From Candidatus Kaiserbacteria bacterium RIFCSPHIGHO2_01_FULL_53_29 (GTDB lineage: Bacteria > Patescibacteriota > Minisyncoccia > Phycocordibacterales > UBA2100): a stretch of 24,000 nt of DNA. This document shows positions 8,893-22,301 of the stretch, one piece after another. Numbering within the stretch: position 1 is the stretch's first letter; the number at the start of each line of letters is the position of its first letter. The notes under the pieces were generated by a model. The model worked only from the letters and a program-made list of their open reading frames with translations, searched no databases and was not told the origin of the DNA. The stretch is taken from contig MFKT01000018.1 of NCBI GenBank assembly GCA_001781125.1, positions 4,595 through 28,594 of the forward strand. Direction: 5' to 3'. The position numbers and the translations under genes were made by a program.

Positions 8893-9902
8893 ATTCCGTC
8901 GAACTTCTTAACGCATTGATCGAGGGGAAAGACCTGAACGCGTCAGACACGCAGGAGTTTTTTAATGCGGTCGTGCGCGGGGAGATCCCTCCCGCGCAGA
9001 TCGCCGGCATCCTCGTGGCGCTTCGCATCAAAGGGGAGAGTGTTGAAGAGATTGAAGGCTTGGTGCGGGCGATGCGTTCCCACATGGTGAAGGTGGATGC
9101 CCCCGGTGCGATCGATATCGTTGGCACGGGCGGCGGGGAAGTCGATCCGTTCAATATCTCAACTGCGGCGGCCCTTATCGCCACTGGTGCAGGGGCTAAG
9201 CTTGCAAAGCACGGCAATCGGGCGGCGTCAAGCAAGTGCGGTAGCGCTGATGTGCTGGAAGCACTCGGTGTGAATATTCAAGTCTCTGCTGAGCAAGCGT
9301 CGAATGTTTTCAAGAACGCGGGGATCGTTTTTCTATTCGCTCCTACGTACCACCCGGCGACGAAAAACGTGGTTGTCGTACGTAAGGAGTTAAAGATCCG
9401 CACCATCTTCAATGTGCTTGGACCGTTCGCGAACCCCGCGGGAGCGAGGCGTCAGCTCGTCGGCGTTCCAAATCCAGATGTTGCGAAAAAGATGATGGAA
9501 GTGGCGAAGAATCTCGACTACGAGCGCCTCATCATCGTTACGTCAGGGGGAATGGATGAGATAAGTATTGTCGGGAAAACACAGGCACTGGAACTCTCGG
9601 AAGGAAAGATGCGCGAATTCGAGATAGATCCGAGCACGTTCGGTTTCAGCGGAAAGAAAGAAGATCTCGCCAGCGGCGATGCACAGACGAATGCAGCGAC
9701 CATTCGCGACATTCTCAAAGGAGAAAAAGGTCCCAAGCGCGATGTTGTGGTATTGAACGCTGCATACGGTCTCTATGTGGCCGGGGTAGCCAAGACACCC
9801 GAGGAGGGAATAAAAGAGGCTGAAGAATCAATCGACAGCGGCAAGGCGGCGGCGGCGCTCGAAGCCCTGATACGCGAAACGCAGAAGTACAAACCCGTAT
9901 GA
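8889..9902 (+). CDS. trpD: Anthranilate phosphoribosyltransferase
   Basis: DIVGTGGGEVDPFNISTAAALIA, KHGNRAASSKCGSADVLEALG and FNVLGPFANPA are TrpD hallmarks; 337 aa. Confidence 0.95.
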   Translation: MNSVELLNALIEGKDLNASDTQEFFNAVVRGEIPPAQIAGILVALRIKGESVEEIEGLVRAMRSHMVKVDAPGAIDIVGTGGGEVDPFNISTAAALIATGAGAKLAKHGNRAASSKCGSADVLEALGVNIQVSAEQASNVFKNAGIVFLFAPTYHPATKNVVVVRKELKIRTIFNVLGPFANPAGARRQLVGVPNPDVAKKMMEVAKNLDYERLIIVTSGGMDEISIVGKTQALELSEGKMREFEIDPSTFGFSGKKEDLASGDAQTNAATIRDILKGEKGPKRDVVVLNAAYGLYVAGVAKTPEEGIKEAEESIDSGKAAAALEALIRETQKYKPV

Positions 9903-11722
9903 AAGTCCTAAAAGTCATTCCCATTAAAAAACCTCTTGACGCCGAAGTAGCCATTCCCGGTTCTAAAAGTTACACCAACAGAGCGCTCCTCATGGCCGCA
10001 CTTTCGGGAAATACAGTGCGCATCAAAAATCCACTCATAAGTGAAGACACTGAGGCGATGATCGGCTGCCTGCGCGAGCTCGGTATTGCCTGTACGCTCG
10101 AAGACGGGCTCGTTACCGTTGCGGGCGGCATCGATTTGGTCAGTGACCGCGAATACAATCTCGATGCGAATCTCTCTGGGACCACGATCAGATTTATCTC
10201 GGCACTCTCGGCTCTAGTTCCCGGGACAAAGACCATTCATGGTAAGCCTCGTCTCAATGAGCGCCCGATCTACGATCTTGTAGATGCATTGCGGCAGCTC
10301 GGAGCCTCGATCGAGTACCTTGACCGGGAAGGCTACCCGCCTATTCGTATCTCGTCTTCGGAGCTTTCTGCGGGAGTAGTCAAAATGAAAGGAGAAGTAA
10401 GTAGTCAATTCCTGTCGGCACTTCTTATGGTGGCGCCCCGCATCGGCGACGTTGAAATACATATTGAGGGTGAACAGATATCAAAACCCTATGTAGACAT
10501 GACCATCGACGCTATGAAGCAATGTGGTGTTACCGTTGTCAACGATCAGTATGCGAAATATCGAATTACGGCAGGAGCAAAATACAAAATGACCGAGTAC
10601 GTGGTAGAGGGTGATGTTTCAAGCGCGTCCTACTTTGCAGCTATCGCGGCTTTGACCGGATCGCGTATTACGCTCAAGAATATGAATCCGCAGTCAGTAC
10701 AGGCGGATATGGGATTTCTTACCATCCTCGCCGGTATGGGGAACGAGATCACGAATGGGGAGAATGAGATAACGATACAGGGCCGTGGCGTAAGGGCGGT
10801 TGATGTCGACATGCGGGGTTGTCCCGATCAGGTACAGACGCTCGCCGTTCTCTCCGCATTCGTGTCGGGCATTACGTCGATCTCCGGCGTGCGTTCGCTA
10901 CGAGTAAAAGAGACGGAACGTGTCGCGGCGCTTGAGCGGGAACTTGCGAAGATGGGCGTACAGGCAGAATCGACCCCCGACACGCTCACCATCCATGGGC
11001 GTGCGCCGAGGCCCGCGGTGATCGACACCTACTGGGATCATCGGATGGCGATGGCGTTTACGGTTGCGGGGACGAAACTGGAGGGCATGGAGATCAGGAA
11101 TCCGGACGTCGTCGGGAAGACGTTCCCCGACTTTTGGGAGAAACTCAATTCGATCGGCATCAAGACGGAAATTTCCGAGCGGGAACCAAATATTGTGCTA
11201 ATAGGGATGCGCGGAAGCGGGAAGACAACGATCGCAAAAATGCTTTCCACCCGTCTGCAGCGCACCAGCATCGAGATAGACGACGAAGTCGTAAAGAAAA
11301 CAGGAATGAGCATCGCCGATATCTTTGCGCATCACGGAGCGGAATATTTCAGGAACAAGGAGTCCGAAGTAGTGGATGAAATGCTGGCAAAAGAGAATAC
11401 CATCATCTCTACCGGAGGCGGGACCATATTGCGACCCCACAACATCGAACAGCTCAAATACAACGCCATCTGTTTCTGGCTGCGGGCTCCCGTCGAAGCC
11501 CTGGTAGAGAGAATGGAGAGTGATCCCTCATCGTCGCAGCAGCGGCCCACTCTCACGGACAAGGAGACACCCGAGGAAGAAACTGCGGAAGTATTGCGAC
11601 AGCGGGAGGCGTTGTATCAAAAAGCCGCGGATGAGGTCGTGGATACCCAGAATAAGAACCCGGGGGGGATCGTCGAAGAGGTATTACTCAAATTGAAAGC
11701 GCGCGGAATTAACGTACAATAA
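9899..11722 (+). CDS. aroA-aroK: Fusion protein: EPSP synthase (residues ~1-425) plus shikimate kinase (residues ~431-607)
   Basis: The N-terminal part has [47 protein letters not shown] and DHRMAMAF (AroA). From nt ~11189 the sequence [14 protein letters not shown] (Walker A), STGGG and RPTL matches AroK. It is one uninterrupted 607-codon frame. Confidence 0.9.
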
Positions 11723-11729
11723 AGTGATT

Positions 11730-12812
11730 ATGGCAGGGAACAGCTTCGGACAATTATTTCGGATAACGACCTTCGGCGAATCGCACGGCGGTGCTGTCGG
11801 CGTTGTGCTCGATGGTTGCCCGCCGGGTATTGAGATTACCGAGGAAGAGATCCAGAAGCAACTCGACCGGCGTCGACCCGGACAGAGCAAAATAACGACG
11901 CCGCGCAAGGAGGCCGACCGCATCAAGATACTTTCGGGATACTTCGAGGGCAAAACGACCGGTACGCCGATGCTCCTCATCGCTTACAACGAAGAATACG
12001 AATCCGACGATTACCTCGAGCTCAAAGAGGCCTACCGGCCCTCACATGCCGACTTTACGTATGAGGCCAAGTACGGTTTCCGCGATTGGCGGGGAAGTGG
12101 TCGCGCTTCTGCGCGCGAGACCCTCGCGCGCGTCGCCGCCGCCGCAGTCGCCCAAAAATACCTAAAGGAGAAACTCGGTATCGAGATCTTGAGCTATGTC
12201 GATCAAGTCGGTGATATTAAAGCCGACATTGATTTTAATACTGTGACACCAGAACAGATAGAATCCAATATCATCCGCTGTCCGGATCAGAGTGCAGCGG
12301 AGAAAATGATAGCCCTCGTCGAGAAGGTGAAAGCCGAGGGGGATTCCATCGGCGGCGTTATTCAGGGTGTCATCCGCAACGTCCCTGCAGGCCTCGGTGA
12401 GCCGGTCTTCGACAAAATTCCCGCCGATCTTGCAAAAGCGATGATGAGTATCAATGCGGTGAAGGGATTCGAGATCGGTTCGGGCTTCGCGGGCGTGTCG
12501 CAACGGGGAAGCGAACACAACGACCCCTTTGAGATACGCGATGGGGAGATCCGCACCAAGACCAACAACGCCGGAGGCACATACGGCGGTATTTCTAGCG
12601 GCGAAACTATCCACTTCCGCGTCGCGTTCAAGCCGGTTTCAACGATTAAAAAAGAGCAAGATACGGTGAATCGTAAGAAAGAGGCCGTCAAACTCTCTGC
12701 GGCGGGCCGTCACGACCCATGCGTCCTCCCCCGCGCCGTCCCGATTGTGGACGCGATGAGTGCTCTGGTAATCATGGATCACTATCTCCGCAACAAAGCA
12801 CAGAACGGTTGA
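11730..12812 (+). CDS. aroC: Chorismate synthase
   Basis: [35 protein letters not shown]-like [12 protein letters not shown] and GGISSGE. I prefer ATG 11730 over the upstream in-frame GTG 11724. Confidence 0.95.
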
Positions 12813-12824
12813 CCAGCGTCGCCT

Positions 12825-13583
12825 TCAGAAACCGAGCAGGAGCTTGAGACCCAAGATGCCGCCCACGATGACAAAGAGTGTTTTGATGAATTTGTTGCCC
12901 TTGTAGCGTGCATAGCGTGAGCCGATGTACGCGCCGACCATAGAACCTAAAATCGCTAAGATTGCGAGCTGTATATCGAAGTATCCTTTGCTGATGAGGA
13001 ACGCTGCGCTGAAAATTGACCACGGAAGTACGATAAGGTAGTAATGGCCAAGTCCGTCAATAAAATCAAAACCTCGTGTGTAAAAAGTGAGTATCGAAAG
13101 AGCGATTGCATTACCGACCCCAAGAATCAGTTCGTAGAATCCCATCACAAGCGCAAAAGGATACGCGTATATCCCGCGTGACTTCGAATATTCTCTTTTT
13201 TCCTGAAGCCCTATATCTTTATTGAAATAGAGATACACGACGAACAAGAGAATTATCACACCAATGCAGATTTGGTATATACGTGGTTGCACGGTGAGTA
13301 TCGCAGCTATACCCAGATAACATCCGATGAGACCGATACCGCTAAAAAGAAGGACGAACATCCAATCCACCTTCCGCCCCTTAAGATAATTGTAAGCAGC
13401 GGGCATTGTCCAGAATACGTTTGTCGTAAAAGCCGTGGAAATAATTATGGGGATGGGAATACCAAGCGATATGAAAACGGGGTACATAATTATCTCCAGC
13501 CCACCGCCCGACATTGTGCCCAATACCGTGGCAGCGATAGCCGTGAAGAATACGGCTACCATGCCCAAGGCATCCAACTCCAT
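12825..13583 (-). CDS. TauE/SafE-family (DUF81) anion permease-like membrane protein
   Basis: 252 aa with ~7-8 hydrophobic helices. It has the Gly-rich N-terminal motif TMSGGGLEI and a C-terminal repeat typical of TauE/SafE. An extended -10 TGATATCAT (13598..13590) lies 6 nt upstream of the ATG. Confidence 0.7.
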   Translation of the reverse strand: MELDALGMVAVFFTAIAATVLGTMSGGGLEIIMYPVFISLGIPIPIIISTAFTTNVFWTMPAAYNYLKGRKVDWMFVLLFSGIGLIGCYLGIAAILTVQPRIYQICIGVIILLFVVYLYFNKDIGLQEKREYSKSRGIYAYPFALVMGFYELILGVGNAIALSILTFYTRGFDFIDGLGHYYLIVLPWSIFSAAFLISKGYFDIQLAILAILGSMVGAYIGSRYARYKGNKFIKTLFVIVGGILGLKLLLGF

Positions 13584-13613
13584 CGCTCAATGATATCAGA
13601 GGAAACAATACCC

Positions 13614-13655
13614 ATATCATCCTAGCTCACGCGGCCACGTGAGCTAGGATGATAT
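13614..13655 (-). terminator. Perfect 18-bp stem / 6-nt loop hairpin downstream of trpA (probable terminator of trpCBA; possibly also an operator for the permease gene)
   Basis: ATATCATCCTAGCTCACG (13614-13631) and CGTGAGCTAGGATGATAT (13638-13655) are exact reverse complements. The T-rich flank is CTTTCTTTTTT on + and only a weak GGGUAUUGUUU on -. Confidence 0.55.
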
Positions 13656-13677
13656 CTACTATTCGCTCCTTTCTTTT

Positions 13678-14511
13678 TTACTCCGTTTGGATTATTTCTC
13701 GAATTGTTTTTTCAACGGTCCCAATCCCCGAAGCCTTGATCGCATCCACAAATACACTGCCGGCGATGACGATGTCGGCTATTTTTGCGAGCGACTGGAC
13801 GTCCTCTTTTGATTTCACGCCGAAACCGACGGCAAGGGGAAGATTGAAGACGCGTTTGGCGAGGGTGGCAAAGTCTGCGAGATCTTTGGCAAATTTGCTG
13901 GTGGCACCCGTGATACCTTGTCGCGAGGTGCAATAGACAAAGCCGAGCAAGTCTTTTCCTCCAGAGGAGGATCCGCCTCCGGCGGAGGCGAGTTGTTTCA
14001 GTCGCTCTTCCGGTACTCCCGGCGAGACGACGGGGATGAAACAAATATTGTTTTCTTTACACGCAGCGATGAGCGCCTGACCTTCTTCGGTATCAAATGG
14101 GCAATCGGGGACGATAAGCGCGCTCGCTCCAGCATCAGCGATTGTTTTTACGAATTTCGGAATACCGTATCTGAAAACCGGGTTGGTATAACTCATCACC
14201 GCAACGGGTTTTCCGAACGCGGCGACTTTTTTAAGGAGTTCGAGCGATTTGGCGACCGTCGCACCTGCTTTTAGGGCGTCTTCGCTTGCAACAGCAATTG
14301 TCGGGCCGTCGGCCATGGGGTCCGAGAAGGGGATCTGCAGTTCGATAATATCCGCGCCGCCTTTCACCAGTGCCTGCGCAACTTGTTCAGACTCACTGTC
14401 GCTTCGATATCCAGCGATCATGTGTGCCATAAAAAAGGGCTTGCCACTTTTTACCCTGAGCAAAGTTGAAGGGTCTCCAAGCAGTGTCTGCAACTTATTC
14501 ATACCGGCCAT
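13678..14511 (-). CDS. trpA: Tryptophan synthase alpha chain carrying an 11-residue Gly/Ser insertion
   Basis: ELQIPFSDPMADGPTI, MSYTNP, GFVYCTSRQGITG and GFGVKSKED are TrpA motifs. I chose start ATG 14511 (MAGMNKL...), which overlaps the end of trpB; ATG 14502 is an alternative. The longer ORF extending to 14562 is probably upstream read-through. Confidence 0.9.
   Translation of the reverse strand: MAGMNKLQTLLGDPSTLLRVKSGKPFFMAHMIAGYRSDSESEQVAQALVKGGADIIELQIPFSDPMADGPTIAVASEDALKAGATVAKSLELLKKVAAFGKPVAVMSYTNPVFRYGIPKFVKTIADAGASALIVPDCPFDTEEGQALIAACKENNICFIPVVSPGVPEERLKQLASAGGGSSSGGKDLLGFVYCTSRQGITGATSKFAKDLADFATLAKRVFNLPLAVGFGVKSKEDVQSLAKIADIVIAGSVFVDAIKASGIGTVEKTIREIIQTE
13953..13987. repeat. 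Copy 1 of an exact 35-bp repeat (in frame within trpA, encodes SAGGGSSSGGK)
   Basis: cttttcctccagaggaggatccgcctccggcggag is identical to 20472-20506. Both copies have the same orientation and sit in the same reading frame relative to their host genes. Confidence 0.95.
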
Positions 14512-15706
14512 ACTCGTCTTTGAGAAACTCTCGGAAACTTTCGTCCTTGAAAGCACGCGCAAAGTTGAAGAGATCTTTGTCGCCGCGTCCGGAAAGCGTC
14601 GCGACGATGATGGAATCTTTCGGCATTTTCGGAGCGATTTTTTGCACGTGCGCTAGTGCATGCGCACTTTCAAGTGCGGAAATGACGCCTTCGAGCTTTG
14701 CAAAAAAGTCGACCGCGGCGACAGCTTCATCATCAGTCGCGTACGTGAGCTCGACTCGCCCTTCGGCATGTAGATTGGCAAGTTCCGGCCCGATTCCCGG
14801 ATAATCAAGCCCAGCAGAGATCGAATGCGTAGGCGCTATCTGTCCGTCTTCTGTTTGCAGAAAGAGTGATTTATAACCTTGGAAAATGCCTTCCGCGCCG
14901 CTAAGCACACGTGAAGCGTGTTCACCAAGCTTTTTGCCCCGCCCTCCTGCCTCCACTCCGATGAGTTGAACACTTTTTTCATGTATAAAATCGTCGAAAC
15001 TTCCCATCGCATTAGAGCCGCCCCCGACACAGGCAACAACTACGTCCGGCGGTTTTCCTTCACGCTCTTGCAGCTGCGCACGTATCTCGCGCGAGATCAC
15101 CGACTGGAAATAACGGTTCATCGACGGATAGGGTTTTGGTCCGACGACACTGCCGATGACAAAGTATGCTTCGTCTAAGTTCTCCATCCAGAATTTGAGC
15201 GCCTCATTCACCGCGTCTTTGAGGGTTTTTGTCCCGTATTCTACTGGCACTACGGTTGCGCCGAGCCTCTCCATCAAGAAGACATTCGGACGCTGGCGCT
15301 CCATATCGATGCGGCCCATAAAGATCTTGCAGGAAAAACCGAGCTTCGCAGCCACCGTTGCGGTGGCAACACCGTGCTGTCCGGCACCGGTATCGGCGAT
15401 AAGCATTTTCTTACCGAGTCTTTTTGCGATGAGCGCCTGTCCGAGGCAGTGGGTGATCTTGTGCGCGCCCGTGTGGTTTGCGCCCTCGTTCTTGAGGTAG
15501 ATTTTCGCGCCCCCGAGCTCCTCGGTCGCGCGCGCGGCGAAGATAAGCGGCGTCGGGCGGCCCGAATAGTTCTTCAGTAAGTTCTCGAATTCGCTTTTGA
15601 ACGCAGTGTCTTTCTTAGCGTTCTCAAATTCAGCGTCGAGTTTCTGCAGTGTCTCCCAGAGCATTTCGGGTACGTACGCTCCCCCGTATGTATGTTTTTC
15701 ACTCAT
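14495..15706 (-). CDS. trpB: Tryptophan synthase beta chain
   Basis: HTGAHKITH (PLP lysine), GAGQHG, VGGGSNAMG and SISAGLDYPG; 403 aa. ATGA overlap with trpC. Confidence 0.95.
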   Translation of the reverse strand: MSEKHTYGGAYVPEMLWETLQKLDAEFENAKKDTAFKSEFENLLKNYSGRPTPLIFAARATEELGGAKIYLKNEGANHTGAHKITHCLGQALIAKRLGKKMLIADTGAGQHGVATATVAAKLGFSCKIFMGRIDMERQRPNVFLMERLGATVVPVEYGTKTLKDAVNEALKFWMENLDEAYFVIGSVVGPKPYPSMNRYFQSVISREIRAQLQEREGKPPDVVVACVGGGSNAMGSFDDFIHEKSVQLIGVEAGGRGKKLGEHASRVLSGAEGIFQGYKSLFLQTEDGQIAPTHSISAGLDYPGIGPELANLHAEGRVELTYATDDEAVAAVDFFAKLEGVISALESAHALAHVQKIAPKMPKDSIIVATLSGRGDKDLFNFARAFKDESFREFLKDEYGRYE

Positions 15707-16482
15707 AGCATTGCTTGTTTCAATTCATGTATTTTTGCAAGGGGATCGGATGATTTCAAGATGGAGGTTCCTACAAGAATACCCCGCGCCCCGGCTTTGC
15801 GCACTCTCCGCACATCCTCGGCGTTCTCGATGCCCGACTCGCTTATCATCGGTATTTTTTTTGGAATGAGGTGGGTGAGCGTCTCGGTGACAGCCAAGTC
15901 AACTTGGAGCGTCTGCAAATCTCGGTTGTTGATCCCGATCACTTCCGAGCCGGCCGCAAGAGCTTTCGCGACTTCGATCTGATTGTGCACCTCAACAAGA
16001 CTGTTCATGTGGAGCTTTTTTCCTAGGTCGATGAGATGTATAAGCTCGTCTACCTTCAATATGTTTGCAATAAGAAGAAATGCATCGGCTCCACTAAGGA
16101 GCGTCTCGTACACCTGATATTCGTCAACAATAAAATCCTTACGCAATATTGCCTGCGGCACTCGCGCTTTGACTCGTTTGAGCAATTCGATGTCGCCGCC
16201 AAAATATGGCTTGTCGGTCAGGACCGAAATCACATCCGCCGAGCTTTTTGCGTAGAGGTCGGCAATATCAAGCGGAGGCTCCGTAATGAGCATACCCTCC
16301 GACGGGGATTTGGGTTTTATCTCGGCGATAAGGACACTCCCGCGATCAAAGAGCTTTCTGAATGATCGTCGTTCAGTTTTGAAGCTTTCGGCCTCCTTTT
16401 GCAGCACCTCAAGCGGTCGAGCCGCCTTGATGGCTTCGATTTCAAGGCGCTTTTTTGCCACTATTTCATCCAAAATAGTCAT
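15703..16482 (-). CDS. trpC: Indole-3-glycerol phosphate synthase
   Basis: IAEIKPKSPS, ISVLTD..YFGG, LRKDFI, IGINNRDL and ESGI motifs; 259 aa. Confidence 0.95.
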   Translation of the reverse strand: MTILDEIVAKKRLEIEAIKAARPLEVLQKEAESFKTERRSFRKLFDRGSVLIAEIKPKSPSEGMLITEPPLDIADLYAKSSADVISVLTDKPYFGGDIELLKRVKARVPQAILRKDFIVDEYQVYETLLSGADAFLLIANILKVDELIHLIDLGKKLHMNSLVEVHNQIEVAKALAAGSEVIGINNRDLQTLQVDLAVTETLTHLIPKKIPMISESGIENAEDVRRVRKAGARGILVGTSILKSSDPLAKIHELKQAML

Positions 16483-16502
16483 ATCCGTAGTATACTCGCC
16501 AC

Positions 16503-17150
16503 ATGACCAGAGTGAAAATCTGCGGCATCAAGAGCGCCGAAGACGCACAAGCCGTAGCAGCGTTTGGCGCCGATGAGCTTGGATTCCACGTCAAATTGAA
16601 CGGCGGGCGCTCGCCACTCGAAGCGGATGTGGCAAAAGCACTGGTCGGTGCACTTCCAAAGAGTTCGGCGGGTGTTGTTGTGACAAGTCTCACCGATGCG
16701 AAAGAATTGATCGAAATTGCGCAAGCGACCGGAGCTTCAACGCTGCAGCTGTATGGCGATGCGACGCCGGAGACGATACGGGAGTTTAAGAAGGCGTTGC
16801 CAGAAGTAAAAATTTGGAAAGTGTTGAACGTATCCGACGAGAACTCAATTGAGAAAGCGAAAGAATACGAAGACGCGGCGGATGCAATCGCTCTCGATAC
16901 GCTCAACAAAGCAACGGGTGTGCGCGGGGGGACGGGGAAGACCCACGATTGGAGTATCAGCAAAAGAATAGTCGAATCAATCTCAATTCCCGTCATTCTC
17001 GCGGGGGGCCTCAATCCCGATAATATCGCGGAAGCCATCCGCACCGTTCGCCCATATGGTGTAGATGTAAACTCCGGCGTTTCCAACCCCGACGGCTCAA
17101 AAGACCTCGAAAAAGTCAAACTATTTATCGAGCGCGCCAGAAATCTATAG
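16503..17150 (+). CDS. trpF: Phosphoribosylanthranilate isomerase
   Basis: MTRVKICGI, LQLYGD, GGTGKTHDW, ILAGGLNPDN and GVDVNSG; 215 aa. It is divergent from trpC with only a 20-nt spacer. Confidence 0.9.
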   Translation: MTRVKICGIKSAEDAQAVAAFGADELGFHVKLNGGRSPLEADVAKALVGALPKSSAGVVVTSLTDAKELIEIAQATGASTLQLYGDATPETIREFKKALPEVKIWKVLNVSDENSIEKAKEYEDAADAIALDTLNKATGVRGGTGKTHDWSISKRIVESISIPVILAGGLNPDNIAEAIRTVRPYGVDVNSGVSNPDGSKDLEKVKLFIERARNL

Positions 17151-17241
17151 TCAGTGGCGAACTTGCAGAGAGAGAGTTCGTGGTATTCATTGCTCGGACA
17201 AGAGAGTCCGAAATTTCCCGTTAACAGCGAGGGTGAAAGCC

Positions 17242-17733
17242 ATGGCACGCAAAGACAGAGATGCCCGCCTGCAGGCGGAGGCTACCGAAATTGCCCAAAA
17301 TTTGAACGGCTGGGCAATTCACAACGACATTCTCAATGCGGGCGAGGTCATCGTCTACGATGCCCGAGTCGAGAAGATCTCGGTTGTCCGGCCAGCCGAG
17401 AGACCGATGGCGACCGAGGAATTCTCGATCAAAGGCCGGAAGGATCGGGGCGTCGAGTTCGTACGCCCTGCCCGAATGACCTCCGACCAGGTTCAGCGGT
17501 TGTTGAGTAAATTGACACTCAGCTCCCGCGAATTCATGCAGGAATTGCTGGTTGAAAAGCGCAACAATCCTACGAACATCAACGAGTTCGGGAACGCTAA
17601 TGATCATCTTGGACATTTCCGAGGCGTCGTCAACGGAGTATTCCGTAACTGCACGATCGGTGGAAAGCACTACCGTTTGGCGACCGATCGGCGCGCGATC
17701 CAACTTTGGGAGGTGAAGCAGATCAAAAAATGA
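17242..17733 (+). CDS. Hypothetical protein (~163 aa), no family recognised
   Basis: Coding-like RNY/G-first codon pattern. GAGGG (17229-17233) lies 8 nt upstream of ATG 17242; the listed ORF start, GTG 17233, falls inside that RBS. The antisense 160-aa ORF is less coding-like. Confidence 0.55.
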   Translation: MARKDRDARLQAEATEIAQNLNGWAIHNDILNAGEVIVYDARVEKISVVRPAERPMATEEFSIKGRKDRGVEFVRPARMTSDQVQRLLSKLTLSSREFMQELLVEKRNNPTNINEFGNANDHLGHFRGVVNGVFRNCTIGGKHYRLATDRRAIQLWEVKQIKK

Positions 17734-17862
17734 TGCGCCTCGGCATCGAAAACGTGAGATCCGCTTCAGTAGTGGGTCTTGGCGGGGTTGGCGGTAATCC
17801 TCGAAACCGTATGTTTACCGATGTGTATCGGTACTGATGAGCTCAAAAGAGCGAAACATAAA

Positions 17863-18963
17863 TTATCGAAGCGACTCAAGGGTTTTTTCGACGACCGTAT
17901 CTTCTACGGGGTGCGCAAACTGACCGTCTTTTTGGTAGACGGAGCCGATTTTTTCCAGGAGCACGTACTGCACAAGACCGCCGCGGACTTTTTTGTCGCC
18001 TTTTGTCGCCGCGATTATGTCGGAAACTTGGAATTTCTTAATCGGTTCTGCAGTGATGTCGAAATGTGAAAGGTATTCTGCGACGAACGTCTTATCTTCC
18101 GGAGAAAGAATCCCGAGCAGCTCGGATATTTTCGACTCGACGAGTATTCCGTACGCGACTGCGTACCCGTGCCGTATTGTGTAGCCCGAGAGCAGTTCTA
18201 TCGCGTGTCCGATGGTATGGCCGAAATTCAGTATTCGGCGCTCGTTCTGCTCGCGCTCGTCACGCATCGCGACGCCGACTTTTATCTCGATGGAGCGGCA
18301 CACGACGTTCATAAGGGCTTCTTTTGTCGAAAGCGGATCGTCGAGGTTTATTTTTTTTACCACTTCAAGTCCCACAGCATCGGAAGTGAGGAATTCCTTA
18401 ATTGCCTCAATAAGACCGTTCACCACATGTTCGCGCGGAAGTTTCGAGAGGAATTGCAGGTCGGAAATGACGGCGTGCGGCAGATAAAATGCACCGACGG
18501 TATTTTTCCCGAAGGGCGTGTCGATGCCCACTTTGCCTCCAACGGAGCTATCAACCATGGCGAGGAGTGTGGTCGGCATTTGAATGTACGGCACACCGCG
18601 CAGATAAGTGGCCGCAACGTATCCGGCGACATCTCCCACCACCCCGCCACCAAGGGCGATGATGAGGCTGTTACGCCCGTAGCGTTTTTCGAGGAGCGAA
18701 TGCTGCAGACTTGTCACCGTTTCTTGGTGCTTATTGCCCTCGCCCTCGGCAAAAGAAAATATCTCGGCGGGTATGCCTAATTTCTGTATGAGCGAAAGGA
18801 CCTTGTCGCCCCAGAGCTGTGCGGTCGTGGAATCCGCAATGATGACTACTGTTTCCGGAGCGGCGCTCTTGATCGCGGCGAGCACTTCGCTCTCGAGACT
18901 TAGCCCAACCGTTATGGGACATTCCGCGCCCTGTGTCTTCAGGACTATTGTTCGCGGTGTCAT
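17863..18963 (-). CDS. aroB: 3-dehydroquinate synthase
   Basis: LGGGVVGDVAGYVAATYLRG, PTTLLAMVDSSVGGK, LNFGHTIGHAIE; 366 aa. Confidence 0.95.
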   Translation of the reverse strand: MTPRTIVLKTQGAECPITVGLSLESEVLAAIKSAAPETVVIIADSTTAQLWGDKVLSLIQKLGIPAEIFSFAEGEGNKHQETVTSLQHSLLEKRYGRNSLIIALGGGVVGDVAGYVAATYLRGVPYIQMPTTLLAMVDSSVGGKVGIDTPFGKNTVGAFYLPHAVISDLQFLSKLPREHVVNGLIEAIKEFLTSDAVGLEVVKKINLDDPLSTKEALMNVVCRSIEIKVGVAMRDEREQNERRILNFGHTIGHAIELLSGYTIRHGYAVAYGILVESKISELLGILSPEDKTFVAEYLSHFDITAEPIKKFQVSDIIAATKGDKKVRGGLVQYVLLEKIGSVYQKDGQFAHPVEDTVVEKTLESLR

Positions 18964-20003
18964 AGGCCTCGTGCAGCAGCAACTTCTCTTATAATGTTTT
19001 CTGTTGATTCCCAGCCGAGACAGGGGTCCGTGATGGAAAGCCCGCCGCGATCAATCGTTTCCGGTGTTGTTGATTCGAGCTTCTGACTACCTTCCTTGAG
19101 GAAGCTTTCTATCATGAATCCTTTGACGAGGCGGCGGTATTCCGCGTCGGCCTGCATGAACGCAAGCGATTCCCTTACGACCTCGCTCTGCCGCCCGGAG
19201 ACCTTCACGCCGTCGACCTTGCAGTTGTCGTGGCTCGCATCAATGATAATGGCAGGATTTTTCACTTTGTGTTTTTCGAAAAGCGCTCCGGCCTTGTGCA
19301 CGTGTGCGGGATCGTAATTGGAGCCGCGGAAGCCGCCGCGCAGCACGAGGTGTGCAAACGGGTTGCCAGTAGTCTCGATCTGGTTGCCATCGAAAGTTGT
19401 GTGATGCGGATGCTGCGCGGCGACGATGCCGTTGACCGCGATCTCGATGGAGCCGCTCGTTGCATTTTTCATACCGACAGGGCAGTCAGCTGCGGAGGCG
19501 AAGATGCGGTGTTCCTGATCCTCCACACTGCGCGCGCCGATGGCCATCCACGAGAGAAGCTCGGCGAATCCTTTCGCGTTGTGTGTGAAGAGCGCTTCAT
19601 CGGCGATGGGGAGCCCCATCTCAATGATCTTCACCATCATGTCGCGGCAGTATTCGGCCCCTTTTGCGATATCGGGCGACTCGAACGGATCGGGTTGATT
19701 CACCGGCCCGAGCCAGCCGCGGATGGTGCGGGGCTTTTGGATATAGACCCGCATGACAATTTTGATCGAATCTTTGACCTCGTCAGAGAGCTTTTTGAGA
19801 CGCTCCGCAAAGGTAAGGACTGCCTCGGACGGCCATGCGGAACAGGGACCGGCGATAAAGAGAAGACGCTTGTCCTCGCCGGAAAGAATTGCTCCGACTT
19901 CTTTGCGGTCCTGAAGTACTTGCGCCTCGCCTTTTTGGGAGAGGGGATGACGCGCGATTATTCTCTCGACAGTCGGCATTTTTTGTATGATTTTGTAGCT
20001 CAT
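18960..20003 (-). CDS. aroG: 3-deoxy-7-phosphoheptulonate (DAHP) synthase, class I-alpha (AroG/F/H-like)
   Basis: From MSYKIIQKMPTVERI the sequence is collinear with E. coli AroG: IAGPCS, IVMRVYIQKPRT.RGW.G, WMAIGARSVEDQEHR, CPVGMKN, IIDASHDN, GKSITDPCLGWE-like. The 84 upstream codons of the listed ORF are Arg/Ser-rich and overlap aroE. Confidence 0.9.
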   Translation of the reverse strand: MSYKIIQKMPTVERIIARHPLSQKGEAQVLQDRKEVGAILSGEDKRLLFIAGPCSAWPSEAVLTFAERLKKLSDEVKDSIKIVMRVYIQKPRTIRGWLGPVNQPDPFESPDIAKGAEYCRDMMVKIIEMGLPIADEALFTHNAKGFAELLSWMAIGARSVEDQEHRIFASAADCPVGMKNATSGSIEIAVNGIVAAQHPHHTTFDGNQIETTGNPFAHLVLRGGFRGSNYDPAHVHKAGALFEKHKVKNPAIIIDASHDNCKVDGVKVSGRQSEVVRESLAFMQADAEYRRLVKGFMIESFLKEGSQKLESTTPETIDRGGLSITDPCLGWESTENIIREVAAARGL

Positions 20004-20016
20004 AGATGTTCGTAGA

Positions 20017-20859
20017 TTACAGCCCTCGTAACTTGTTCTCGAGGAGCTCTGTATAGTCTCCGGCGATATCTCTCCCAAGCCACAGGCGTTCCTGCTCGAG
20101 GCCTTGTGCGAGGAACATGACGAGGCCGGAGATGGCGCGCGCGCCGCGTGCATCGGCGGTGCGCAGGAGCTTGGTCTCAAGCGGGCTGTAGACAAGATCG
20201 AAGACCGCCGTCTCTTTTTGGATGATCTCCTCCGGTACCGGCATCGCGTCAACATTTGGCGACATACCGATGGGGGTTGCGTTCACGATGACATCGAAGG
20301 GTTGCTTCGCGAAGTCCTCCGTTTCGATGAACGTGCCGTCGAATGCTTTGCAGAGAACCTCTGCTTGTGCCCGATCGCGATTGTGGCAGAAGATATGCGC
20401 GCCCTCGCGATGCAGATGGTATGCAACCGTCAGTGCGGCGCCTCCGGCACCCACGAGAAGCACGTTTGCGCCTTTTCCTCCAGAGGAGGATCCGCCTCCG
20501 GCGGAGAGGTCAACTCCAGAAAGTGCAGCCGCGATGCCTTTCACGTCTGTATTGAATCCGGTGAGCTTACCGTCCCGGTTCACTACCGTGTTGACTGCGC
20601 CGATATCGCGCGCGGTTGCGTCGATCTCGTCAAGGAGCGGCATGATCGTTTGTTTGTGAGGCATCGTCACTGCCGCAAGATGGATCGGCAGTGCGCGTAC
20701 CGCGGCGACCAATACAGAGATATCAGGATTACCAAAAGCGAGCATGACCGCATCGACGCCTTCTTTTTGGTAGATGGCATTGTGTAGCAGAGGACTCAGG
20801 CTGTGCGTGACAGGATTGCCCATAATAGCCGTCAGTTTTGTTGCGGGAGAGATGGTCAT
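20017..20859 (-). CDS. aroE: Shikimate dehydrogenase carrying the same 11-residue Gly/Ser insertion just before the NADP-binding GAGGA motif
   Basis: GNPVTHSLSPLLHN, VTMPHK, GAVNTV, GFNTD, LLVGAGGAA; 280 aa. Confidence 0.9.
   Translation of the reverse strand: MTISPATKLTAIMGNPVTHSLSPLLHNAIYQKEGVDAVMLAFGNPDISVLVAAVRALPIHLAAVTMPHKQTIMPLLDEIDATARDIGAVNTVVNRDGKLTGFNTDVKGIAAALSGVDLSAGGGSSSGGKGANVLLVGAGGAALTVAYHLHREGAHIFCHNRDRAQAEVLCKAFDGTFIETEDFAKQPFDVIVNATPIGMSPNVDAMPVPEEIIQKETAVFDLVYSPLETKLLRTADARGARAISGLVMFLAQGLEQERLWLGRDIAGDYTELLENKLRGL
20472..20506. repeat. Copy 2 of the exact 35-bp repeat (in frame within aroE, encodes SAGGGSSSGGK)
   Basis: Identical to 13953-13987 and contains GGATCC. The NTD-to-GAGGA spacing is ~8 residues longer than in E. 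coli AroE. Confidence 0.95.
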
Positions 20860-20860
20860 A

Positions 20861-20992
20861 CCCGGCTAGTACAATTTCGAATAATTACCACCGCAGTTGT
20901 AACCACGAACGTTTTCAATACGCCCTGGTCAATGCTTCTTGTCATACGCTGATGGATATTCATACAAGGTAATTCGAAATTGTCCTGCCGGG
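20861..20992 (-). repeat. Imperfect long-range inverted repeat filling the aroQ-aroE spacer
   Basis: The left arm cccggctagtacaatttcgaataattacc (20861-20889) pairs with the right arm ggtaattcgaaattgtcctgccggg (20968-20992). The arms share the blocks CCCGGC, ACAATTTCGAAT and TACC and enclose ~78 nt. Confidence 0.6.
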
Positions 20993-20997
20993 CATAT

Positions 20998-21435
20998 CTA
21001 TTTCGTCAGATGCGCCTGCAGTGTCGCAACCGCTTCGACGTAGCCTGCTTCCTTTTTCCCTGCGATCATTGCGATACACGCCGGTGCGGTCACCGAGATC
21101 TTTCTCCAGTCTTCGCGTGAATTGATGTCGGAGAGATGCACCTCGACGCAGGGCAGATCGGTATCGACGAGCGCATCGTGGAGCGCGTAGCTGTAGTGCG
21201 TGAATGCGCCAAGGTTCGCAATGATGCCGGCAGCGTCTGTCGCCTCGGCCTGCAAGAAGTCGATGAGCGCGCCCTCGTGATTCGATTGAAATGCTTTGAC
21301 CGTGTGGCCTATTCTTTGCGCTTCGGCCGCAACGAGCGCCTCAATATCGGCAAGCGTCTTCGTGCCGTACTGCGCCGCATCGCGTTTGCCGAGGCGGTTC
21401 AGGTTGGGTCCGTGGATAAGTAGTATCGTGGCCAT
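20998..21435 (-). CDS. aroQ: 3-dehydroquinate dehydratase, type II
   Basis: ILLIHGPNLNRLG, QSNHEGALID, NLGAFTHYSYAL, VEVHLSDI; 145 aa. Confidence 0.95.
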   Translation of the reverse strand: MATILLIHGPNLNRLGKRDAAQYGTKTLADIEALVAAEAQRIGHTVKAFQSNHEGALIDFLQAEATDAAGIIANLGAFTHYSYALHDALVDTDLPCVEVHLSDINSREDWRKISVTAPACIAMIAGKKEAGYVEAVATLQAHLTK

Positions 21436-22069: not shown

Positions 22070-22301
22070 TACGCAAATACAAAAATCCGCCCTTACAACA
22101 CGAATACACTTCGTGTAGTAAGGGCGGATTTCTTCCGCGGTGCCACCTTTTTTCTTCTTACTCCGACTATACGTCGGAGTTACCTCTATTACGGGAGAAC
22201 CCCGAGATACCACTTGCGCAGTACCTTACCTGCCGCGTCAGACGCGGACAATTCGGCCCGAACCCCGGCCAGTGCCGGGAACCGAATCTAAGGCTTTTAC
22301 T
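22070..22301 (-). promoter_or_regulatory. Second T-box riboswitch leader (amino-acid specificity not assignable by eye)
   Basis: On the minus-strand RNA, the T-box core AAGGUGGCACCGCGG lies at 22149..22135. The antiterminator is AAGG/CCUU plus the 7-nt bulge UGGCACC plus GCGG/CCGC. The competing terminator, AAAUCCGCCCUUAC...GUAAGGGCGGAUUU followed by UUUUUGUAUUUG, spans 22131..22071. Upstream lie the Stem III hairpin ACUCCGAC-GUAUA-GUCGGAGU, an F-box-like CCGUAA, and a 5' segment AAAGCCUUAGAUUCGG homologous to the trp T-box. Confidence 0.8.

Follow-up and report, generated by a model that had tools for sequence, protein, structure and literature searches.

The window analysed here, that is, the whole 24,000-nucleotide stretch of contig MFKT01000018.1 (positions 4,595 to 28,594, assembly GCA_001781125.1) from Candidatus Kaiserbacteria bacterium RIFCSPHIGHO2_01_FULL_53_29, carries on its minus strand the genes of tryptophan synthase alpha (trpA) and shikimate dehydrogenase (aroE), assigned by Pfam to Trp_syntA (E 4.5e-64) and to Shikimate_dh_N/Shikimate_DH, respectively. 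Both genes hold the same 35-nt sequence, CTTTTCCTCCAGAGGAGGATCCGCCTCCGGCGGAG, which has two exact matches in the window, at 13953-13987 and 20472-20506 (plus strand), 6519 nt apart. This repeat is the longest direct one of the window, and dinucleotide-preserving shuffles gave no 35-mer match (0/100). Within each of its copies lies a 30-nt double hairpin, hereafter the element, whose nature and origin are considered here. The features are as follows:

13678..14511 (or to 14562), minus strand: trpA, tryptophan synthase alpha, annotated with 277 aa in public assemblies
20017..20859, minus strand: aroE, shikimate dehydrogenase, 280 aa
13957..13986, minus strand: element copy 1, 30 nt, coding strand TCCGCCGGAGGCGGATCCTCCTCTGGAGGA, read as SAGGGSSSGG; in trpA, between ...L-A and K-D...
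20476..20505, minus strand: element copy 2, 30 nt, identical to copy 1; in aroE, between ...V-D-L and K-G-A-N
13957..13971: hairpin unit TCCTCC-AGA-GGAGGA (plus-strand reading), copy 1
13972..13986: hairpin unit TCCGCC-TCC-GGCGGA (plus-strand reading), copy 1
20476..20490: hairpin unit TCCTCC-AGA-GGAGGA, copy 2
20491..20505: hairpin unit TCCGCC-TCC-GGCGGA, copy 2
13953..13956, minus strand: bases native to trpA beside copy 1, on the coding strand the Lys codon AAA and a G, which fit the A-rich 3' flank preference of the family
20472-20475, minus strand: native flank of copy 2, same composition and fit

An earlier inspection of the letters (the sequence-only reading) had described the repeat as having the same orientation and reading frame in the two genes, and this is borne out: on the minus, coding strand both copies encode S-A-G-G-G-S-S-S-G-G-K, the predicted peptide string across the insert being ...LASAGGGSSSGGKD... 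The opposite strand, as had also been stated, is open, and all six frames of the element are free of stop codons. The copy in aroE stands immediately upstream of the GAGGA dinucleotide-binding motif. Neither further copies nor degenerate relatives of the element occur elsewhere in the window; an Rfam scan of the window matched no family, so no known RNA family lies at the element, and a search of the same DNA for tRNA and tmRNA genes returned none. Deletion of the intervening 6.5-kb trp/aro block through the 35-bp direct copies, another earlier suggestion, is possible in principle but is unsupported speculation, and would destroy both genes.

The boundaries of the insert were defined by alignment of 120 TrpA and 120 AroE homologues and delimit 10 residues in both proteins. 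A clean 10-residue gap separates '...LA' from the conserved 'KD..' in 114/120 TrpA homologues, and 119/120 AroE homologues are devoid of the insert, their gap, between L and a native K, again spanning exactly 10 residues. Thus, of the 10-11 extra residues first proposed, 10 is the correct figure and 11 is not, the Lys being native according to the homologue alignments. The closest TrpA homologue (P0001/L030, 85-88% identical) displays the empty site CTC GCC/AAA GAC (slashes mark junctions), where the window trpA reads CTC GCC/TCCGCCGGAGGCGGATCCTCCTCTGGAGGA/AAA GAC; L023 and L031 are filled as well. This filled/empty comparison with L030 establishes that the insert is exactly 30 nt long, that it brings no target-site duplication and that the Lys codon is native. 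The remainder of the 35-mer is native flank, namely the Lys codon AAA together with a single base to either side, and these five extra nucleotides coincide between the copies because the family prefers similar flanks. Clean gaps of 10 residues are likewise found in the alignments of TsaD and DnaG orthologues.

The element is made of two tandem 15-nt palindromic units, TCCGCC-NNN-GGCGGA and TCCTCC-NNN-GGAGGA (in general TCC[G/T]CC-NNN-GG[C/A]GGA), each forming a 6-bp stem closed by a 3-nt loop; the sequence-only reading had recognised two small hairpins, and only its stem lengths needed correction. The double hairpin is the minimum-free-energy fold, at -10.7 kcal/mol as DNA (z -3.1) and -17.4 as RNA. 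The first loop is mostly purine-rich and the second is its near-complement, so that the whole 30-mer is a near-palindrome centred on GGATCC, and this BamHI site is the mere junction of two TCC...GGA units. Being near-palindromic, 30 nt long and stop-free, the element can be read in both orientations as S-[A/S]-x-G-G-S-[A/S]-x-G-G. Among 148 distinct copies, the most frequent loop pairs are GGA/TCT (31), GGA/TTC (16), GGA/TCC (15), GAA/TCC (11) and AGA/TTC (11), besides others. The stems are maintained: in a relaxed search, 17/19 stem variants with two mismatches proved to be compensatory swaps, such as TCCGCC/GGCGGA to TCCTCC/GGAGGA or TCCACC/GGTGGA, and the rarer forms TGCGCC/GGCGCA and TCGGCC/GGCCGA are compensated likewise. 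Overall, 97% of stem cells are paired, with covariation centred on stem position 4 (70 distinct sequences). Furthermore, doublets number 171 in 0.97 Mb of carrier DNA, against 24 singlets, most of which are half-decayed doublets, and triplets are absent, which designates the doublet as the unit of the element.

The family of the 35-mer was searched beyond the window, as the sequence-only reading had advised. In a scan of one genome per species over 185,579 species, the 25-nt core was retrieved in 23 stretches from about 14 metagenome-assembled genomes, with at most three exact copies per genome. The carriers are labelled Kaiserbacteria, Liptonbacteria, Paceibacteria, 'Saccharibacteria', Patescibacteria group or plain 'bacterium', and stem from several unrelated projects. 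A pattern with free loops yielded at least 120 stretches in metagenomes from groundwater, lake and other independent studies. The low number of exact copies per genome, and the fact that copies are insertions and not point-mutated sites, make a DNA-uptake sequence unlikely.

Element sites are spread over unrelated genes and some non-coding DNA, in both orientations. The host proteins include DnaG, RecG, XerC/D, TsaD, GyrA, AlaRS, CysRS, ValRS, MetRS-like synthetases, DinB, UvrA, UvrB, UvrD, a class IV aminotransferase, a SpoU methyltransferase, a class I aldolase (FBA), TrpA and AroE. TsaD carries five different sites over four genomes (L008, L086, L095, L112), with two in some genes, and would seem to be a hotspot protein that tolerates insertions; one of its copies is read in an alternative frame, as PPKADPPPEE. 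Two different sites are found in DnaG. Among the non-coding copies, two from one Liptonbacteria metagenome-assembled genome (L002:3400-3480 and L004:7760-7830) have about 68 nt in common including flanks, arranged as GATACGCTT-element-AACGAATxGxGCATGCGAAT, and a short repeat, GAATAGTGCATGCGAAT, recurs near them. A larger 'master copy' around these two was considered and rejected, only those ~68 nt being shared and nothing in them being coding.

The reading frame was counted for the 93 copies lying in open reading frames (ORFs) of at least 150 aa. Strikingly, 83/93 copies (89%) fall in the two Ser/Ala/Gly frames, 47 of them being read S-A-x-G-G-S-S-x-G-G and 36, in the opposite orientation, S-S-x-G-G-S-A-x-G-G, and only 10 use the other four frames. 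The flanks are themselves biased: T stands at -2 in 103/147 copies on one side and in 127/147 on the other, and at least one end adjoins TT in 126/147, which gives the consensus TTT/element/AAA and sites that are mostly TN/NA. Preference for in-frame AAA/TTT targets alone does not account for the frames used, since in real ORFs such target sites lie between codons in at most 46% of cases, against the 89% observed; this difference requires selection on the translated product, so that the element must be translated. Structure modelling, which had been proposed as a check, places both insertions in low-confidence coils that we read as surface loops. In the AlphaFold model of TrpA (mean pLDDT 89.5) the insert belongs to the coil 174-187, between helix 164-173 and strand 188-190, which is the alpha5/beta6 connection; in that of AroE (mean pLDDT 93.6) it belongs to the coil 113-131, between helix 105-112 and strand 132-136, that is, to the linker preceding the Rossmann GAGGA strand.

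Presence at orthologous sites is patchy. Six TrpA sequences carry the element or a derivative of it at the same codon boundary, namely the window protein, P0003/L023, P0015, P0088, P0011/L031-L032 and P0092/L033. They are not mutual nearest relatives, and every one of them has neighbours, at 84-89% identity, in which the site is empty. In P0011 a loop has changed from GGA to GAA and three neighbouring codons are also lost, and in P0092/L033 only 12 nt of the element are left, TCCGCCGGAGGA, as slippage between GGAGG repeats could have produced. The codons abutting the element vary among carriers (CTC GCC, CTA GCA, CTT GCA, ATC GCG), and for this reason its spread, or homing, by homologous recombination of trpA alleles is unlikely. 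In aroE, the copy is present in one of the 120 homologues and therefore looks like a lineage-specific gain.

The conservation of the trpA insert was compared with that of its gene. Four-fold degenerate sites are identical at 39% between the window and L023 and at 37% between the window and L031; inside the element, 10/10 four-fold third positions are identical (P about 9e-5 for L023 and 5e-5 for L031). Insert-bearing relatives thus encode the insert with the same nucleotides, and not with the diverged ones that the sequence-only reading had taken as the mark of old, independently maintained loops. This identity fits repeated recent hits, which are plausible where a gene offers few sites that the element prefers and the protein tolerates, and it also fits an old insertion that was precisely lost many times and whose sequence was frozen. 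Either course implies active seamless gain and/or loss. A joint constraint on hairpin and peptide would freeze the element because each third-codon position of a stem pairs with a first-codon position.

A partner of the element was sought by clustering all ORFs within 1.5 kb of its copies. The only recurrent non-housekeeping family encodes a protein of about 85 aa with a GIY-YIG domain; PF01541 was assigned to P0241 and P0242, and no NCBIfam family matched the protein. Ten loci share one order, that is, an element-bearing 5' fragment of tRNA-Glu, then the GIY-YIG ORF, then an intact tRNA-Glu abutted or overlapped by the 3' end of this ORF. Within the tRNA fragment, the element sits in eight cases exactly at 35/36 of the anticodon loop and once at 8/9, and some cassettes have additional single hairpins of the element type in the D-loop. 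The ATG of the GIY-YIG gene lies 9-18 nt downstream of the GGAGGA of the element. L037 and L112 have an upstream tRNA fragment that does not match their downstream tRNA, a hint that the fragment moves together with the nuclease gene. Furthermore, P0242/L154, a GIY-YIG homologue retrieved independently of the element, has the same layout, and its pseudo-tRNA leader contains a variant, fully compensated doublet, CCCTCC-GGA-GGAGGG TCCTTC-TTC-GAAGGA; in L142, fetched for another copy, a TT-type doublet precedes the GIY-YIG gene. The cassette loci are:

L003:1300-1760, minus strand
L009:5990-6402
L086:4930-5320
L045:4040-4350
L142:9600-9944
L154:2740-3116
L137, L037, L062, L097 and L112, without coordinates

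Taken together, these data favour, with a probability of roughly 0.78, the view that the two window copies are ordinary members of a family of palindromic 30-bp double hairpins, dispersed in and specific to Patescibacteria and the candidate phyla radiation (CPR), very small, non-autonomous, selfish and tolerated in surface loops. Of the origins that the sequence-only reading had offered, the evidence thus speaks for the third, a very small insertion element that lies in frame and is similar in principle to those of Rickettsia. Such an element would insert seamlessly, as exactly 30 bp and with no target-site duplication, preferring T at -2 and A at +2, and the copies landing in a Ser/Gly frame within a surface loop would be tolerated and hence persist. 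It would behave as selfish, non-autonomous DNA that undergoes recurrent gain and/or precise loss and is mobilised in trans by an enzyme for which the GIY-YIG protein is a candidate. The copies in trpA and aroE probably have no host function beyond that of harmless loops.

As to the enzyme, one may reasonably suppose a nuclease that recognises structure and acts on DNA hairpins or cruciforms; our data offer no candidate other than the GIY-YIG protein. By analogy, we propose as a hypothesis that this nuclease mobilises the element in an arrangement like that of the repetitive extragenic palindromic (REP) doublets known as REPINs and their REP-associated tyrosine transposase (RAYT). The boldest version, which we regard as unlikely in its entirety, is that the element is the smallest known bacterial mobile element routinely found in coding sequences, moved in trans, with seamless insertion and excision at TN/NA, by the small tRNA-Glu-associated GIY-YIG nuclease, every gene of which would bear a copy in its leader, in a REPIN/RAYT-like partnership built on another nuclease superfamily, and that loops are in this way continually added to and removed from CPR housekeeping proteins.

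Several points weigh against a mobile selfish element. The at least 120 metagenome stretches carry no taxonomic assignment, and most copies were found with a pattern that fixes the stems, so that only about 37 incidental variants inform stem conservation. An old insertion under joint hairpin and peptide constraint could also account for the nucleotide identity at orthologous sites. Our data contain no transposition event, no intermediate and no presence/absence polymorphism within a population. The GIY-YIG association was largely ascertained via the element, with about two independent cases (L142 and L154), and an IS200-like TnpA is absent from the ORFs of ~1 Mb of flanking DNA in a phmmer search whose approximate query makes it a weak test.

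The main rival, which we hold to be improbable, is a host-functional cis-element, that is, an old selected DNA or RNA signal under purifying selection, such as a protein-binding site, an element of mRNA processing or stability, or a translational pause at domain boundaries. Stems kept by compensatory changes while the loops drift would be expected of such a signal, as would the identical nucleotides at orthologous trpA sites despite saturated synonymous sites and the consistent presence of the element in the GIY-YIG gene leader, with its GGAGGA 9-18 nt ahead of the start codon. However, a cis-element of the host should not be missing from nearly all TrpA and AroE homologues, closest relatives included, nor be scattered over unrelated genes at sites that vary between genomes within one protein, as in TsaD. 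Decayed remnants, the use of both orientations and the lack of an Rfam match argue in the same direction, and it is this sporadic distribution, together with the multiple sites within single proteins, that leads us to disfavour a host signal.

Far less probable is the absence of any shared element, the inserts having arisen by convergence of peptides or by locally templated palindromic insertion during repair. Surface loops do tolerate Gly/Ser-rich insertions, and fold-back repair would by itself give perfect palindromes; yet such repair would copy the flanking sequence and not the conserved TCCGCC/TCCTCC motif, and convergence on a peptide does not yield thirty identical nucleotides at unrelated sites in different phylum-level groups, nor invariant four-fold sites.

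An engineered Gly/Ser linker, for which the sequence-only reading had invoked the BamHI site as a hallmark, can be given a negligible chance: the peptide does resemble a flexible linker, the DNA contains GGATCC and the only paper with the peptide string concerns a designed protein, but the element occurs on more than 100 environmental contigs of independent studies, in CPR-type genomes only, with variable loops and diverged flanks, and viral contigs, PLSDB plasmids and GenBank phages gave 0 matches. The absence from viral contigs, shared by the GIY-YIG relatives, also speaks against a phage-borne element. An artefact or chimera of assembly is equally negligible: assemblers can go wrong at short repeats, and copies lie close to the ends of several contigs, but AroE with the insert recurs in identical form on 13 contigs of different assemblies and assemblers, including Rifle aquifer data sets, and the inserts lie precisely in frame, at the same codon boundary in the orthologues of other genomes. 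The contigs that begin or end within ~150 nt of a copy are L020 (copy at 6-30), L039 (112-141), L045 (82-111), L048 (143-172) and L060 (2277-2306), as expected if the repeat breaks short-read assemblies.

Among known systems, those nearest to the element are the Rickettsia palindromic elements (RPEs), the REPINs and the small dispersed repeats of cyanobacteria. As summarised in PMC10969869 from Ogata et al. 2000, RPEs are palindromic, ~100-150 bp long and inserted in frame in many unrelated genes of Rickettsia, where the added peptide segment is compatible with the protein fold, and the same source presents them as regarded as selfish DNA. The element likewise is a palindromic, fold-compatible and lineage-restricted repeat, in frame in unrelated housekeeping and metabolic genes; it is set apart from that description of RPEs by its 30 bp, its two hairpins with 6-bp stems, its occurrence in Patescibacteria and its Ser/Gly reading in both orientations. 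REP sequences and REPINs are extragenic palindromes of 20-40 bp bearing a GTAG/CGTC tag and associated with RAYT, an IS200-like HUH tyrosine transposase (PMC3116915; see also PMC3733652). The element resembles REPINs as a short, presumably non-autonomous palindrome whose unit is a doublet (171 against 24 singlets) and whose copies beside a single nuclease-type gene suggest mobilisation in trans. It differs from REP sequences in being mostly intragenic, in frame in long ORFs, in ending with TCC...GGA within T/A-rich flanks in place of a GTAG/CGTC tag, and in that the repeat-flanked gene encodes a GIY-YIG nuclease, the weak search of ~1 Mb of flanks having found no IS200-like gene.

The small dispersed repeats (SDRs) of cyanobacteria, the 'very small mobile repeated elements' of Elhai et al. 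2008 (a work cited in PMC3116915), are reportedly 21-27 nt long, with compensated hairpins, no target duplication, nesting and strain-variable orthologous sites, and are said to be mainly intergenic or embedded in other repeats; we know of no SDR described as an in-frame protein insertion. The likeness to the element extends to size, hairpins with compensatory mutations, lack of duplication, nesting and presence or absence at orthologous sites. It is a functional resemblance only, as the two have no sequence relationship and belong to different phyla, and the element is not a member of SDR1-8. The double-hairpin elements and GC clusters of fungal and other mitochondrial DNAs are tens of bp long, consist of two adjacent hairpins, and are dispersed and occasionally present in coding regions; they differ from the element in their organelle genomes, their sequences and their lack of consistent in-frame Ser/Gly coding. 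From miniature inverted-repeat transposable elements the element, palindromic as it is, differs by the absence of target-site duplication in the filled/empty comparison. Single-strand ('peel and paste') elements of the IS200/IS605 type have subterminal hairpins, no target duplication, a short specific motif beside the insertion and a TnpA Y1 transposase. The element shows hairpins, no target duplication and a short flank preference; the weak search of its flanks found no TnpA, and it is far shorter than the known minimal ends of that type. A (Gly4Ser)n linker is similar in its flexible Gly/Ser peptide and in GGATCC coding for Gly-Ser, and is distinguished by the natural distribution, palindromic nucleotides and variable loops of the element, which has no vector context. 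Finally, judging from its sequence, the cassette has a feature of GIY-YIG homing-endonuclease cassettes, as the GIY-YIG ORF adjoins what would be its target gene, tRNA-Glu. In full-text searches, no description was found for the peptide, the DNA string or palindromic in-frame elements in CPR.

If our reading is correct, selfish DNA within protein-coding genes, best known from the RPEs, would extend to the CPR/Patescibacteria radiation, and the size of such elements would go down to 30 bp. This would explain recurrent Gly/Ser-rich insertions in CPR housekeeping proteins, otherwise read as adaptive or as annotation noise, and would reveal a route that repeatedly offers flexible loops and linkers to protein evolution. 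The element would furthermore provide a marker for the strain-level dynamics of uncultivated bacteria and a testable candidate nuclease partner. As exact repeats, its copies probably cause assemblies to break and, rarely, give rise to illegitimate recombination in small CPR genomes.

A second family of small palindromic in-frame repeats, CGAGATCCCTCG...CTCGGGATGAC, was encountered in the carrier DNA. It includes an exact 47-nt copy present twice in one ValRS gene (L129, minus strand, 10833-10880 and 11487-11534), which encodes HPKRPLRHPELVEGSR, and a further copy at L147:627. At four places (L120, minus strand, 234 and 432; L147, minus strand, 1121; L129:1433), the loop of the second element contains a nested copy of the 30-bp double hairpin.

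Two other palindromic structures lie in the window. A near-perfect palindrome of 42 bp with 21-nt arms and no spacer, ATATCATCCTAGCTCACGCGG/CCACGTGAGCTAGGATGATAT, occupies 13614-13655 in the 94-bp gap between the stop of trpA and the start of a TauE-family gene; its sequence is unrelated to the element, and its role may be that of an operator or of a structure resembling a terminator. A strong hairpin at 22083-22131 has 22-nt arms, 95% complementary and containing GGGCGGATTT/AAATCCGCCC, around a 5-nt loop. Patescibacteria are generally described as devoid of most amino-acid biosynthesis, which makes notable, in a CPR-type genome, the compact aromatic amino-acid block at 9899-21435 of the window, composed of an aroA-aroK fusion, aroC, trpA/B/C/F, aroB, the gene of 3-deoxy-D-arabino-heptulosonate 7-phosphate (DAHP) synthase, aroE and the gene of a type II dehydroquinase.

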